Source: an uncultured Candidatus Saccharibacteria bacterium (lineage in GTDB: Bacteria > Patescibacteriota > Dojkabacteria > J137). From it: a stretch of DNA of 44,956 nucleotides. The DNA is taken from NCBI GenBank assembly GCA_964437465.1, contig CAYTGI010000006.1, positions 1-44,956 of the forward strand, in the 5' to 3' direction. The notes beneath the pieces were generated by a model. That model worked only from the letters and a program-made list of their open reading frames with translations. It was not told the DNA's origin and did not search any database. Positions within the stretch are counted from its first letter, which is position 1; every line of letters begins with the position of its first letter. The position numbers and the translations under genes were made by a program. Of the stretch, positions 17,980 to 22,529 are shown one piece after another.

Positions 17980-20900
17980 CTATGCTTTAGTTATTTTGAA
18001 ACTAATCTCTTCATCTCCGATTTTTGCCTTTAATGCTTCTTCGTCTAACTCAGATTCTTTAATACTTTTTGCCTTAACTGATTGTGATAGATCATTATTA
18101 AGAGTGATGAATAGATTTTTTAGGAACTCGCTATCAGTAGAATATTGAAGGTTAATTTGATCATTCATCTGAAGTTTCATTTTCTTCCTTGCTGCTTGAA
18201 TATTTCTTGTTAATTCTCGCAATGCACCTTCCATTCTTAGCTCATCATTTATCTCAAGGTTTAATCCAACCTGTATTCCAAGGGTAGTATCTCCAATAAC
18301 TTTTACAGTCTCTGATTCTTCAAATTCAAATTTCTCCATCGCTTCCTTTACATTTAATTCTTTTTGAATCAGTTCTTTCATCCATCCAGTTAATGCACCA
18401 AGATCTTCATTAGTTGAATGAACGTATAGCTCTGATAAAGGTTGTCTTACTTTTTGCCCATTCTCAACTCTTAGATTATGTCCAAATTCAACAATCTTTC
18501 TAATAAGTGACATTTCAGTTTCAATTTTTGTATATTCCTCTATGAACTTCTGATCATGAGTAGGGAAGTCAGTTAAGTGAATTGATTCTTCCTTATCTTG
18601 TAATTCTCCAAATATAATTTCTCTGTAGATATGATCAGTGATGAAAGGAGCAAACGGAGCAAGTAGCTTTAATGTTTCTACTAAAACGTAGTAAAGAACC
18701 TCTAAAGCTCTATGATCTCCAGCTCCAAATCTATCTCGATTAGATCTAATGTACCATTTTGAAGTTTCAGATATTAGATCGGAAATTGGTTTCAAAGCCT
18801 TTGGCACAATGTAACTTTCCATATTCTCGTTAACTTCTTTTATAGTTTTTTGGAGCTTTACCAAAATCCATTCATCTAAATTATTCTCGATATCATCAAA
18901 AGGAATGTGATCCCAAGGGTGTGAATCACCAGTTACATTTCTTTTATTGTAGGCAAGATCTTCAGTTGGTTGCCAGTTATGCATATTTGCATATGTTGTT
19001 AAGTAGCTGTAGATGTTCCAAAGAGGAAGAGTAATTTCTTGAACCTGTAGTTTTAAATCTTTCTCATTGAAGTTAATATCCTCTCCTACTAATAGAGGGC
19101 TTCCTAAAAAATATAATCTTAATGCGTCTCCACCGTATTTTTCAATAGTTTGTTTAGGATCAGGATAATTTTTAAAACTCTTACTCATTTTTCTTCCATC
19201 TGTTCCTGCCATATTCCCTGTTACTATGACATTTTTGAAAGGTGCCTTGTCAAAAACGATTGTAGAGACTCGAATTAAAACATTAAACCAAGCTCTAATT
19301 TGCCCTACATATTCAGCGATATAATCAGCAGGAAAATTATTTTCGAAAATTTCTTTATTCTCAAAAGGGTAGTGCCATTCAGCTACAGGGACGGATCCTG
19401 AGTCTAGCCAGTTATCTAACACATCAGGAATTCGATGATACTCTTTTCCATCTTTAGTTAAAACGATCTTATCGCAAACATCTCGATGAAGCATAACCCT
19501 CTCATCTCCAAAGTACCAAACTCCATCTTTCTCTTTTATCTGATCATTGTACTCGCTCATCTCTTCAATACTTCCAACTACAATCTCATCTCCATCTTCA
19601 GATCTCCAAATTGGCATAATCGTTGCCCAGTATCTTGTTCTTGAAATTCCCCAATCTGGAGCATTTTTGATTACTTCAGCCATTCGTCCTTCCTGAAAAT
19701 GATCTGGAATCCAATTTATATCTTTATTAACCTCAAGCATTCTATCTTTAACCTTATTTATATTTACAAAATATGAATCTTGAGCTTTATATATCAATGG
19801 ATTATCTCCTCTGAAGAATGGTAGTCTGTGTCTGTAAATTTCTGACTTTAAGAGATTTCCTTTCTTTTTAAGATCCTCTTTAATTGGCTCAGCAGCATCC
19901 CTAAGATAAGTTCCCTTAAATTCTCCAACGGTTAAATTTCCTTCATCGTCAATATCTTGATGATCACTTAATTTGAACTTTTCTCCTAATTCAAAGTCTT
20001 CTGCTCCGAATCCAGGAGCTACATGAAGTACACCTGTTCCATCATCTGTAGTAACTCCTTCATATAGATAAACCTTAAAATCATTATCAGTAGTGTCTTT
20101 TACAAAATAATCATAAACTGGTTCGTATTCTAATCCCTCGAGATCTTTACCTTTGATTTCGTTTTTAATTGTTAAATTTTTATGATCATCTCCGAAGATA
20201 TACTCTAATCTTTTCTTAGCAACAACAAGGTTACCTTCTTCATGTTCAATGACTACATAATCTTCTTTAGGGTTGACTGCCAGGGCAAAGTTAGAAGGAA
20301 TTGTCCAAGGAGTTGTTGTCCATGCAACTATAAAAGTATTTTCTGATCCTTTGATTTTTTCTGGTTTTTTCAATTTAAATTTCACAAAAATACTTAGATC
20401 ATCAACATCTTGGTAGTTATTAGATTCAGCAACCTCAAATTCTGAAACTGGTGTTGCAGTGTCTGTAGAGAAGAGCGAGACTCTTTTTCCTTTGTATACA
20501 AAGCCTTTTTCATGCATTTGTTTAAATACCCAGATGACTGATTCATTGAATTCAGGATTCATTGTGTAGTAGGCATTTTCCATATCCACCCATCTTCCAA
20601 CTGAATCGATATACCATTCCCATTGGCTAGTTACCTCTTCAACATGTTTTCTACATTCCTTTACATAGTTATCAATTCCAAATTCTTCTACATCAGCTCG
20701 GCTCTTAAGATTAAATTTCTCATTAACTTTTGCTTCAATAGGTAATCCATGACAGTCCCAACCCCAAACTCTTCTAATCTTTTTACCTCTCATTGCCCAA
20801 TATCGTGTAACTGGGTCTTTAGTAATTGAGGATAGTAAAGAACCGTAATGAGGCATTCCGGTTACAAAAGGTGGTCCATCAACAAAAGTATATCGATTAT

Positions 20901-21012
20901 CTTCATCTTTGGATTCAATCGATTTTTCAAAAATTTTATTTTCTTTCCAGAACTTCAAAACTTCCTGTTCTAAATCAAAGAAATTTTGTCTTGGGTTTGG
21001 TTTGTTAAACAT
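17980..21012 (-). CDS. ileS: Isoleucine--tRNA ligase, type 2 (archaeal/eukaryote-like)
   Basis: DGPPFVTGMPHYGS, GWDCHGLP, WTTTPWT, DWGISRTRYW, GRKMSKSFKNYPDP; no C-terminal Zn finger. Confidence 0.97.
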   Translation of the reverse strand: MFNKPNPRQNFFDLEQEVLKFWKENKIFEKSIESKDEDNRYTFVDGPPFVTGMPHYGSLLSSITKDPVTRYWAMRGKKIRRVWGWDCHGLPIEAKVNEKFNLKSRADVEEFGIDNYVKECRKHVEEVTSQWEWYIDSVGRWVDMENAYYTMNPEFNESVIWVFKQMHEKGFVYKGKRVSLFSTDTATPVSEFEVAESNNYQDVDDLSIFVKFKLKKPEKIKGSENTFIVAWTTTPWTIPSNFALAVNPKEDYVVIEHEEGNLVVAKKRLEYIFGDDHKNLTIKNEIKGKDLEGLEYEPVYDYFVKDTTDNDFKVYLYEGVTTDDGTGVLHVAPGFGAEDFELGEKFKLSDHQDIDDEGNLTVGEFKGTYLRDAAEPIKEDLKKKGNLLKSEIYRHRLPFFRGDNPLIYKAQDSYFVNINKVKDRMLEVNKDINWIPDHFQEGRMAEVIKNAPDWGISRTRYWATIMPIWRSEDGDEIVVGSIEEMSEYNDQIKEKDGVWYFGDERVMLHRDVCDKIVLTKDGKEYHRIPDVLDNWLDSGSVPVAEWHYPFENKEIFENNFPADYIAEYVGQIRAWFNVLIRVSTIVFDKAPFKNVIVTGNMAGTDGRKMSKSFKNYPDPKQTIEKYGGDALRLYFLGSPLLVGEDINFNEKDLKLQVQEITLPLWNIYSYLTTYANMHNWQPTEDLAYNKRNVTGDSHPWDHIPFDDIENNLDEWILVKLQKTIKEVNENMESYIVPKALKPISDLISETSKWYIRSNRDRFGAGDHRALEVLYYVLVETLKLLAPFAPFITDHIYREIIFGELQDKEESIHLTDFPTHDQKFIEEYTKIETEMSLIRKIVEFGHNLRVENGQKVRQPLSELYVHSTNEDLGALTGWMKELIQKELNVKEAMEKFEFEESETVKVIGDTTLGIQVGLNLEINDELRMEGALRELTRNIQAARKKMKLQMNDQINLQYSTDSEFLKNLFITLNNDLSQSVKAKSIKESELDEEALKAKIGDEEISFKITKA

Positions 21013-21071
21013 TTCTAAAGATATAAGATTTAAGATAAGAGATCTAAGATTTCTTGGATCTGAGATTTTTA
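21013..21071 (-). repeat. 3' heptamer arm (xxATCTY) of the four-helix-bundle gene
   Basis: Minus strand: aaatctc agatcca ag aaatctt agatctc ttatctt aaatctt atatctt, running up to the ileS start. Confidence 0.8.
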
Positions 21072-21406
21072 ATTATGGTGTAAATCATTTTTTTAAGCTC
21101 ATCAATTTTCATCTCAGTATGTTCCCAGCTTTTATTTTGTATATATTTAAGATCATGAGAAATCTCAATCATAGTTGATACTTCGTTTAGTGAACCCAGT
21201 GCTATATTTAGGAAATTTGCGAATTCTTTATCCGTTTGCCTTACTGCTCCTTCAGCAATATTTGCAAGAATTGAAACGCCAGCTCGTCTAATTTGATTGG
21301 TTAATCCAAATTTTTCTTCTTCGGGAAATGTTGAAGTTATTGTATATATATCTTTAACTAAGTCCTTAGATACTTGCCATATTTTTAACTGCTTGTAGTT
21401 ATGCAT
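21044..21406 (-). CDS. Four-helix-bundle protein (23S rRNA IVS protein-like, TIGR02436-type)
   Basis: YKQLKIWQ, FPEEEKFGLTNQIRRAGVSI.ANIAEG, FLNIALGSLNE. Confidence 0.93.
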   Translation of the reverse strand: MHNYKQLKIWQVSKDLVKDIYTITSTFPEEEKFGLTNQIRRAGVSILANIAEGAVRQTDKEFANFLNIALGSLNEVSTMIEISHDLKYIQNKSWEHTEMKIDELKKMIYTIIKNLRSKKS

Positions 21407-21445
21407 TGTTTCTTTTGTCTAAATTCTTTTATCTGGTGTCTTAAA
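21407..21445 (-). repeat. 5' heptamer arm (xxAGAxx) of the four-helix-bundle gene
   Basis: Minus strand: taagaca ccagata aaagaat ttagaca aaagaaa directly before the ATG; reverse-complementary in character to the 3' arm. Confidence 0.7.
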
Positions 21446-21537
21446 GAGGACTGGATCGCCCAGTGGTACCACCTCATTTTCCCGATGAAGAAATCGGGAC
21501 GCTCATTTTAGCTATTTCGGGCTCTCCCGCCTAGGTC

Positions 21538-21567
21538 TAGTCTCCTACGCTAAAGCTTCGGAGACTA
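21538..21567. repeat. REP-like palindrome (CCTACGCTAAAGCTTCGG type) inside the T-box
   Basis: TAGTCTCC-tacgctaaagcttc-GGAGACTA, perfect 8-bp stem. Confidence 0.7.
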
Positions 21568-21605
21568 AACTCCAAAAACTTTAACAGCTTGCCAATTTCG
21601 TCTTG

Positions 21606-21631
21606 ATCTACGAAGCCTTGGCGAAGTAGAT
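21606..21631. repeat. REP-like palindrome (CGAAGCCTTGGCGAAG type) inside the T-box
   Basis: ATCTAC-gaagccttggcgaa-GTAGAT. Confidence 0.7.
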
Positions 21632-21700
21632 TTCTTCTAAGTGCTCTGGAGTGATATCTCGTCTGCTTTTGGCATGAGCTCCTTCTACGCGTTCATTTTG

Positions 21701-21709
21701 ATTTTATCA
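21701..21709 (-). promoter_or_regulatory. Putative extended -10 promoter for the T-box/ileS leader
   Basis: Minus strand TG-A-TAAAAT about 7 nt upstream of the first T-box motif. Confidence 0.5.
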
Positions 21710-21713
21710 CAGT

Positions 21714-22529
21714 TTAATAGTCAAATTCCTCAAATGGAGGATTAATTAATCTCATGTCCTGATTAAGGGAATCCATAATTTCAGTTTGTTCTTTCGATAG
21801 GTGGATGTCCTGACTTTTAAAGTTTTCTTCAATATGCTCTTTAGAGCCTGCTTTTGGAATTGTGATTATGTCTTTGTCAAGTAACCATGACAGAATTGCC
21901 TGGGCTGTGCTAGCTCCAATTTCTTCAGCAATATCTTTAATCTCCTTTATATCTAAATCTTTTCCCCTTGCAATAGGGGAATATGCTGTTAAATAAATAC
22001 CATGATCCATACAGAAATCATAAAGATCCTTTTGGTAAAGGGTAGGGTGGAATTCAACTTGGTTATTTGAAATTTCAAATCCTTCTTCATGAATTCTCTC
22101 AATATGTTTAATAGTGAAATTAGAAACTCCATAAGAATTAATTAGACCTTTTTCTTTAGCTTTTTCCATTGCTTCAAGAGTATCCATGATCGGAATATTG
22201 CTATCTGGCCAATGAACAAGATAAAGATCTAGGTAATCTAAGCTAAGCTCATCTAAATTTCTTTTTAATGAATCTATGAGTTGGTCTTTTTTTAAGTTAT
22301 CTCTCCAAACTTTAGAAGTTACGAAAAGCTCAGATCTTTTAACATTACTGTTTTTAATTCCTTTCCCAACTTCATTATGATTGCCGTACATATCTGCAGT
22401 ATCAATATGTCTATAGCCAACTTCTAGGGCGTATTCAATAGACTCAATGCAATTGTCTCCAGTTAATTGCCATGTACCAATCCCAAGAAGTGGTATTTCG
22501 TTGCCATGTTTAAGTTTTACTTTACGCAT
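21714..22529 (-). CDS. Aldo/keto reductase
   Basis: LGIGTW, GYRHIDTADMYGN, LFVTSKVW, YLDLYLVHWP, GVSNF, AYSPIARG, IPKA. Confidence 0.95.
   Translation of the reverse strand: MRKVKLKHGNEIPLLGIGTWQLTGDNCIESIEYALEVGYRHIDTADMYGNHNEVGKGIKNSNVKRSELFVTSKVWRDNLKKDQLIDSLKRNLDELSLDYLDLYLVHWPDSNIPIMDTLEAMEKAKEKGLINSYGVSNFTIKHIERIHEEGFEISNNQVEFHPTLYQKDLYDFCMDHGIYLTAYSPIARGKDLDIKEIKDIAEEIGASTAQAILSWLLDKDIITIPKAGSKEHIEENFKSQDIHLSKEQTEIMDSLNQDMRLINPPFEEFDY

Follow-up and report, generated by a model that had tools for sequence, protein, structure and literature searches.

An isoleucine T-box without an elbow platform in a Dojkabacteria genome, separated from ileS by an intervening-sequence-type cassette

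The ileS leader and its T-box sensor

The stretch of DNA analysed here (the window) comprises 44,956 nucleotides of contig CAYTGI010000006.1, which is contig C6 of a metagenome-assembled genome (MAG G000; 1.18 Mb, 29 contigs). On its minus strand lies ileS, the gene for isoleucyl-tRNA synthetase (IleRS), preceded by a T-box leader and by a cassette that encodes a protein of the 23S rRNA intervening-sequence (IVS) type. We confirmed that positions 21693-21446 of the minus strand are a genuine Ile T-box with an AUC-A specifier, located 5' of ileS. It belongs to a platform-less type with a short Stem I, which is widespread in Patescibacteria and falls under the Rfam cut-off. In public genomes, the IleRS loci nearest to that of the window carry the label Candidatus Dojkabacteria or Patescibacteria, in agreement with a preliminary description, made from the sequence alone, that had placed the DNA in a probable genome of the candidate phyla radiation (CPR).

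Sensor, promoter and gene are arranged as follows:

21643..21693, minus: Stem I as a whole (K-turn, 4-bp helix, mini-hairpin, specifier loop); all four helix pairs covary in 30 leaders
21643..21690, minus: predicted K-turn (kink-turn) at the base of Stem I, formed by GC 21690-21689, GUAGAA 21688-21683, AGA 21647-21645 and GC 21644-21643
21648..21682, minus: 4-bp helix of Stem I, GGAG 21682-21679 with CUCC 21651-21648
21678-21658, minus: distal mini-hairpin CUCAUGCCAAAAGCAGACGAG, 21 nt
21657-21652, minus: specifier loop AUAUCA; codon AUC 21655-21653, conserved purine A 21652
21530..21641, minus: Stem II, base helix CUUAG 21641-21637 with CUAGG 21534-21530, S-turn-like flanks AAGAAA / CUAGAC; all 5 base pairs covary
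21501..21529, minus: Stem IIA, CGGG 21529-21526 with CCCG 21521-21518, then the linker AAAUAGCUAAAAUGAG (putative IIB pseudoknot partner, F-box-like region)
21480..21499, minus: Stem III, UCCCGA(U) ... (A)UCGGGA; compensatory changes in all 6 pairs
21446..21475, minus: discriminator (antiterminator/anti-sequestrator); both helices covary in 30 relatives
21446..21475, minus: discriminator helix A1, GAGG 21475-21472 with CCUC 21449-21446
21471-21465, minus: T-box bulge UGGUACC of the discriminator
21450..21464, minus: discriminator helix A2, ACUGG 21464-21460 with CCAGU 21454-21450
21701..21724, minus: promoter from a consensus scan, TTGACT 21724-21719 and extended -10 TGATAAAAT 21709-21701
17980..21012, minus: ileS, isoleucyl-tRNA synthetase, 1010 aa (PF00133, PF08264); orthologs in all 27 family genomes

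Read from AACGC onward, the leader runs through GUAGAA-GGAG, the mini-hairpin, AUAUCA-CUCC-AGA-GC and a long Stem II region, followed by CGGGAGAGCCCG-AAAUAGCUAAAAUGAG, Stem III (UCCCGAU...AUCGGGA) and AAAAUGAGGUGGUACCACUGGGCGAUCCAGUCCUC, which ends at 21446; T-box sequence and discriminator together read AAAUGAGGUGGUACCACUGG...CCAGUCCUC at 21478-21446. Neither an AG bulge nor a distal T-loop platform was found in Stem I, which has just the 21-nt mini-hairpin above the specifier; the orthologs lack even this hairpin, apart from one congener (G012). The putative K-turn at its base, whose pattern in relatives is GC-nnUGAA ... nGA-GC, is retained in the window as GUAGAA / AGA. Orthologs have the same compact Stem I, with GGAG-AUAUCA-CUCC in G017, GGAG-CUAUCA-CUCC and GGAG-CAAUCA-CUCC in congeners, and the compensatory AGAG-CUAUCA-CUCU in G026. 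The xxAUCA specifier is kept in 13 ileS leaders of the order, valS leaders having GUCA, and AUC-A also occurs in ileS leaders of other Patescibacteria. In six leaders from the GTDB family of the window genome, GGUGGUACC precedes ileS. The preliminary description had reported a truncated Stem I devoid of AG bulge and distal T-loop, together with a canonical antiterminator and an AUC specifier. The conserved and covarying GGAG-xxAUCA-CUCC of the orthologs confirms the former; specifier conservation, the position 5' of ileS and the covarying discriminator confirm the latter. The K-turn, Stem II, Stem IIA/B and Stem III were absent from that description and are all present in the window leader.

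Covariation was measured on the 30 best leaders of the order, both Ile (xxAUCA) and Val (GUCA). Alignment of full leaders with MAFFT was thrown off by insertions and was replaced by trimmed cores and a covariance model, built from six such cores with a hand-written structure. This custom model scores the window at 120 bits and matches 25 of the order's 32 genomes. Across the 30 leaders 97.4% of cells are paired and 25 of 28 pairs show compensatory changes; none of 500 shuffles reached either value, and sliding the partner columns abolished the signal. The alignment was fitted to the covariance model and hence leans toward the structure, yet the effect is still far beyond the controls. Stem IIA and its flanking motifs are nearly invariant in the set, and the IIB columns do not vary, so that they give no covariation signal. 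The T-box match is far beyond chance.

With Infernal, the Rfam T-box model RF00230 matched 21443-21648(-) at 50.4 bits (E 6e-10). As the gathering score is 93, a standard annotation run misses the Ile T-box, which becomes visible only at E-value thresholds; at the gathering threshold the window yields nothing but a group I intron and a tmRNA. All orthologous leaders tested with Rfam scored 49-61 bits, and the T-box class therefore goes unannotated. The Rfam match also places Stem I at 21648-21570, with the AUC at GUAGAUCAAGA. We rejected this placement: the segment in question is part of a branched insertion of ~95 nt at the apex of Stem II (about 21628-21546(-)), which is shared by the window and L008 and missing in three orthologs (L007, L019, L024), so the Stem I and AUC specifier of the preliminary description are correct. 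The same insertion blurs the position of the S-turn in the window, where that fold is putative. A hairpin of the insertion, CUACUUCGCCAAGGCUUCGUAG, recurs at G000:C5:36623-36644 and C13:8378-8399 (91-95% identity, 22 nt). Among the congeners, G014 has a near-identical insertion, G013 a diverged one and G012 none, yet G012 alone shares the Stem I mini-hairpin of the window; the small structured inserts of congener leaders thus form a mosaic pattern.

Like canonical RF00230 members (tyrS and glyQS of B. subtilis), the window leader has a UGGNACC bulge, a specifier followed by a purine, a probable K-turn, Stem III and a position 5' of the cognate synthetase gene; unlike them it has no AG bulge/distal-loop platform and no terminator, and it scores 50 bits against 93. 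Three further T-boxes were matched in the MAG, which makes four: a fully canonical Ala T-box with a terminator (L001), a Val T-box with an ultrashort Stem I, and a Gly T-box.

Which tRNA would the sensor read? ARAGORN found 34 tRNAs in the MAG, tRNA-Ile(UAU) included; tRNA-Ile(GAU), tRNA-Ala(UGC) and 16S/23S rRNA signature sequences were not found in the assembly. In relatives, tRNA-Ile(GAU) adjoins tRNA-Ala(UGC), as in rRNA spacers, and has A as discriminator base, so that its ACCA end matches the UGGU bulge. From these relatives we infer tRNA-Ile(GAU) as the probable cognate of the window T-box.

The predicted transcript start (~21695-21692) coincides with the start of the T-box (~21693), and TGnTAAAAT/TGnTATAAT is kept in five orthologs at an equal distance from AACGC. 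A search for transcript evidence found the sequence only in DNA runs from a microbial-mat metagenome.

Predicted start-site masking in related leaders

Outside the family (Woesebacteria, Microgenomates, Peribacteria, Gracilibacteria and others), ileS leaders have a minimal Stem I followed by a stem and U-tract terminator, often abutting the AUG. Examples are L070, L071, L099, L117 and L120, whose decoding module is that of the window (xxAUCA in a hairpin of 4-6 bp, then Stem II, IIA/B and discriminator) and which likewise score below the Rfam gathering threshold. These leaders end in U-tract terminators, whereas none was found in the ileS leaders inside the family. The parallel that the preliminary description drew with the ultrashort Stem I of Actinobacteria is incomplete, since a short Stem I outside the family is mostly coupled to intrinsic terminators.

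Leaders of the family have a different partner for the discriminator. In three congeners its 3' strand, CCUCAGUAA..., is complementary to ...UUACUGAG-AAACC-AUG, at -15.5 to -15.8 kcal/mol. Paired with the ileS start, the 3' half of the discriminator gives -15.8 kcal/mol in L033 and L035 (4/300 and 3/300 shuffles as good) and -15.5 kcal/mol in L037 (0/300). G007 (L039) pairs CAUUGUCGU with ACGACAAUG at -18.4 kcal/mol (0/300 shuffles), with the AUG inside the helix, and G017 (L032) pairs CUCUAAUAAA with UUUAUUAG-C-AG at -12.9 kcal/mol (9/300 as good). Outside the family, one leader from Dojkabacteria (L073) would have its start codon buried by the pairing of CCCCAUAC with GUAUGGGG. The sequences of the masking partners vary between genera; their complementarity and position are conserved, and the masked region in the orthologs is the AUG or positions -6 to -20.

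In front of 665 long open reading frames (ORFs) of the MAG, Shine-Dalgarno (SD) motifs (GGAG, GAGG, AGGA) show no enrichment. Because SD motifs are not used genome-wide, the mechanism of the family is best described as SD-independent start-site masking, by which its ileS T-boxes would act according to our folding models. The absence of an SD after CCUC, pointed out in the preliminary description, is true of the window leader but is not specific to it. Between -25 and -1, the 665 ORFs are T-rich at -16 to -12 and A-rich at -11 to -8, a pattern that resembles the -10 box of leaderless or very-short-leader mRNAs.

The congeners, which lack a cassette ORF, carry other inserts of 70-110 nt in the sequestrator loop. 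Structured inserts lie between T-box and ileS AUG in L035 and L037 (CCCUGAG...UCGAAGGG..., and GUCAUGGUUCGA...CUCACCAUGAC), and neither matched an Rfam family at E<=0.1. In L032, L033, L035 and L040 (G017, G012, G013 and G008), the ileS start reads AACCAUG, complementary to the T-box bulge GUGGU and paired with it in minimum-free-energy folds. We considered this start as a mimic of the ACCA end of tRNA and rejected the idea as a general one: such a start occurs in four of nine orthologs, and the window has none.

The other leaders of the MAG gave mixed results. In its Val leader the start region pairs at -16.6 kcal/mol (78/500 shuffles as good), which is suggestive of masking in the model; in the Gly leader the same pairing was looked for and not found. 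The Val T-box (L002, G000:C5:67928-68087(-), ultrashort Stem I, GUC-A) is followed, within ~90 nt downstream, by GUAC-type heptamer hairpins without a four-helix-bundle (4HB) ORF, and after these hairpins lies CUUUGAACAUGG, able to pair with the discriminator CCUCAAAG. L002 thus resembles a cassette site with empty arms, as does the ileS leader of G008 (L040), whose empty arms are UCAAAG/CUUUGA.

The synthetase itself comes in two divergent forms in the family, ~70% or ~40-44% identical to the N-terminal 182 aa of the window protein (L009-L013 and L014-L029, respectively), which share the first ~35 residues (MFNKPNPRQ...). T-box presence is uncoupled from this similarity, as the genera nearest by IleRS outside that of the window have no T-box match.

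A 4HB cassette in place of the masking strand

Between CCUC and the ileS AUG, the window is wholly different from its congeners, three of which have no 4HB ORF at the T-box/ileS site. Here, the segment consists of an ORF between two heptamer arms:

21411..21445, minus: 5' cassette arm, five heptamers ending in AGA (UUUAAGA CACCAGA UAAAAGA AUUUAGA CAAAAGA); abuts the discriminator with zero gap
21044..21406, minus: 4HB ORF, 120 aa, 23S_rRNA_IVP / S23p family (PF05635, E 3.4e-40, full length)
21061-21040, minus: small hairpin
21015..21049, minus: 3' cassette arm, five heptamers starting with UCU (UCUUAGA UCUCUUA UCUUAAA UCUUAUA UCUUUAG)

The 3' arm overlaps the stop codon of the 4HB ORF (21046-21044), and 2 nt lie between the arm and the ileS AUG. 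A scan of the minus strand from 21446 to the ileS ATG found no intrinsic terminator; its two matches were both on the plus strand, one the complement of Stem III and the other a hairpin at the ORF end. The sequence after CCUC also contains no GAGG partner. Consistent with these results, the preliminary description had seen no GAGG-U-tract terminator. Pairing of the window discriminator 3' strand was no better than shuffles with either start, giving -6.1 kcal/mol with the 4HB start (278/500 as good) and -7.2 kcal/mol with the ileS start (344/500). The window leader thus has no SD and no sequestrator. It had been proposed that the expression platform was either unconventional or disrupted by the insertion, and the comparison with relatives supports that alternative: the congeners pair the discriminator with the start region, and in the window this arrangement is replaced by the cassette.

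We also evaluated the two heptamer arms as a stable long-range helix and rejected this for the window: the duplex has -11.2 kcal/mol, 197/500 and 97/300 shuffles were as good, and 80% of randomly chosen flank pairs from the genome bind each other more strongly. Arms of sister leaders behave differently, at -23.4 (L041), -38.6 (L060), -30.8 (L061) and -39.5 kcal/mol (the MAG's own glyS), with at most 1/300 shuffles as good. In L036, L041 and L060 the arm helix extends into the last nucleotides of the discriminator 3' strand and/or the synthetase start. The earlier suggestion that the platform may use the heptamer arm therefore has a basis in the strong arms of sister leaders but not in those of the window.

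Cassettes of this kind are a recurrent feature of the MAG, which has 12 PF05635 genes, nearly all lying between tandem heptamers on the 5' side and the reverse complement of these on the 3' side, each copy with its own heptamer. Examples are C18:18584-18868, C5:38575-38886 and C9:24364-24678, and heptamers include (ATTACGA)x6, GTACTnA and TAAGCTn. In many of them a TCCCC(A) motif precedes the start codon by 15-25 nt. The PF05635 genes lie directly 5' of housekeeping genes (glyS, ileS, thrS-like, epmA-like, atpG, trmD). The order T-box, cassette, synthetase was found in six leaders of five genomes, namely the window Ile leader, the MAG's own Gly leader, the Ile leader of G006, whose contigs were joined through a (CCGAUAA)n array, and the Val leaders of G019, G017 and G007; the Ile leader of G009 retains a degenerate remnant. 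Given ~12 cassettes among ~1,100 genes, their presence at five of 30 T-box loci is far above random placement by a rough binomial whose events are partly dependent. The presence of the cassette after T-boxes is recurrent and no accident. Complementary termini occur in the sister cassettes of L004, L041, L060 and L061, and the Val cassette of G017 (L060) uses the same AAGAU/AUCUU heptamer family as the window locus. A tree of 15 4HB proteins, examined for a single clade of T-box-associated cassettes, was unresolved. A cassette-free variant of the window locus was sought in contigs; only one form was present.

The cassette is similar to the 23S IVS of Coxiella burnetii and Leptospira, of which the former has an S23p ORF, GACAGAT repeats and a 28-bp stem and is excised by RNase III (PMC4990558). 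Both have a PF05635 ORF with tandem heptamers directly 5' of its start and inverted flanks able to loop out the ORF. Unlike the IVS, the window cassette lies in an mRNA leader, between T-box and ileS, instead of in 23S rRNA, and its flanks are not significantly complementary.

Possible control of ileS and its meaning

Translational ileS T-boxes with a short or ultrashort Stem I are described from M. smegmatis, M. tuberculosis and N. farcinica (Sherwood et al. 2015, as reported in PMC7583486; structure and dynamics in PMC10651847). Judged against these accounts, the window leader shares with the actinobacterial T-boxes the AUC specifier, the truncated Stem I with a probable K-turn, the lack of an elbow platform and of a terminator, the canonical discriminator and, as far as sequence allows us to say, a Stem II with S-turn-like flanks and a putative IIA/B pseudoknot. 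Family orthologs share in addition the alternative pairing of the discriminator 3' strand with the translation start region. The differences are the phylum (Dojkabacteria/Patescibacteria), the lack of an SD to sequester and, in the window, the ~95-nt insertion in Stem II and the replacement of the sequestrator by a protein-coding cassette.

How might such a leader work? By homology to solved ileS T-box complexes (PMC10651847, PMC7583486), and given its conservation, AUC-A, held between the K-turn/4-bp helix and the mini-hairpin, would pair with the anticodon of tRNA-Ile, while Stem II and IIA/B may take over the role of the elbow platform in supporting that contact. The UGGU bulge would pair with the uncharged ACCA end and stabilise the discriminator helix. 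In the ancestral off state, without tRNA, the discriminator 3' strand would instead pair just upstream of, or across, the ileS AUG. In the window genome, the partner strand for this masking has been replaced by the 23S-IVS-type cassette, so that ileS would be ON by default, any residual control passing through arm closure or translation of the 4HB ORF.

Since the discriminator has no competing helix and the arms are too weak to act as one, tRNA control of ileS may be weakened or lost. The reading we prefer, with confidence evenly balanced, is that the ancestral switch is disrupted and that ileS is now largely unregulated, or weakly regulated, by tRNA. Several observations weigh against it. The other nine Ile leaders of the family share 49 invariant columns, at 2 of which the window departs (orthologs, 0-5), and 39-50% of ileS four-fold sites differ from the congeners in a rough, ungapped comparison; an intact sensor beside diverged four-fold sites means that the insertion is recent or that the T-box is still selected. 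Five other leaders combine the same layout with an intact T-box, which suggests that the cassette is compatible with regulation. The tRNA-Ile(GAU) gene is missing from the MAG because the rRNA operon is unassembled, and our energy models ignore proteins (the 4HB protein included), Mg2+ and co-translational effects.

A working switch could include the cassette. The arm helix would loop out the 4HB ORF and mask both the 4HB and the ileS starts, the tRNA-bound discriminator would hinder its closure, and translation of the ORF would keep the arms open, so that ileS tracks the charging of tRNA-Ile. This proposal fits the strongly complementary arms of L041, L060, L061 and the own glyS leader (-23.4 to -39.5 kcal/mol), the contacts of the arm helix with the discriminator 3' end and/or synthetase start in L036, L041 and L060, the heptamer family common to L060 and the window, a window T-box that is not decaying, and the perfect complementarity of UUUAAGA (21445-21439) to UCUUAAA (21035-21029). 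It must contend with window arms that are no better than shuffles and fall below the genomic background, with a ~360-nt loop to be closed under translation, and with a predicted arm duplex that overlaps the discriminator by zero nucleotides and leaves the ileS AUG and ~10 nt upstream of it unpaired. We consider it rather unlikely for the window, but it is the main rival of the preferred reading. Alternatively, the T-box may act via a factor, either by shielding its long untranslated leader from Rho-dependent termination when tRNA is bound, through cleavage of the arms by RNase III or another nuclease, or through a pentameric 4HB protein seated on the ~five heptamers. Rho and RNase III genes are present in the MAG, the sensor is conserved though no platform is visible, and the Coxiella IVS, with its S23p ORF and heptamers, is excised by RNase III (PMC4990558). 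However, the sequence after the T-box has no C-rich, G-poor rut-like tract, and the weak window arms would be a poor substrate for RNase III. Such a route seems improbable to us; we know of no T-box that acts by Rho- or RNase III-dependent gating. That the locus is a canonical transcriptional T-box with an overlooked terminator, or no T-box at all, is scarcely credible. The Rfam score is indeed under the gathering threshold and most Patescibacteria ileS T-boxes outside the family do carry U-tract terminators, but the minus strand has no stem and U-tract at 21446-21012 and no GAGG partner after CCUC, and covariation and the conserved specifier rule out a chance T-box.

Reviews tie a short Stem I to the SD-sequestering switches of Actinobacteria and hold the elbow platform necessary for transcriptional control (PMC7583486), and TBDB sought translational Ile T-boxes only in Actinobacteria. 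Our search of the literature for T-boxes together with CPR or Patescibacteria found no paper. The literature searched describes no such T-box variant, in which Stem I lacks the elbow platform outside Actinobacteria, the genome does without SD motifs and a cassette of the IVS type lies in the expression platform; the new points are the association with the cassette and the terminator-less family. In Patescibacteria one minimal decoding module appears to serve three outputs: U-tract terminators in most lineages, SD-independent start masking in the family and, in the window, no visible competitor. All platform-less copies are below the Rfam cut-off and hence absent from standard annotation.

A broader proposal, to which we would attach little probability, is that the IVS-type 4HB cassette of Dojkabacteria is a recurrently co-opted platform module of T-boxes rather than a passive insert, with the arms as sequestrator, the ORF as a leader ORF that opens this stem when translated, and a pentameric 4HB protein binding its own heptamers. 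By analogy, a 4HB protein on ~five heptamers may resemble TRAP on its spaced triplets. If so, synthetase expression would receive a second, protein-based input, with each cassette carrying its own heptamer "address". The recurrent layout of T-box, 4HB cassette and synthetase offers a concrete, testable setting in which to study what S23p/23S_rRNA_IVP proteins and their heptamer repeats do, a question of long standing.

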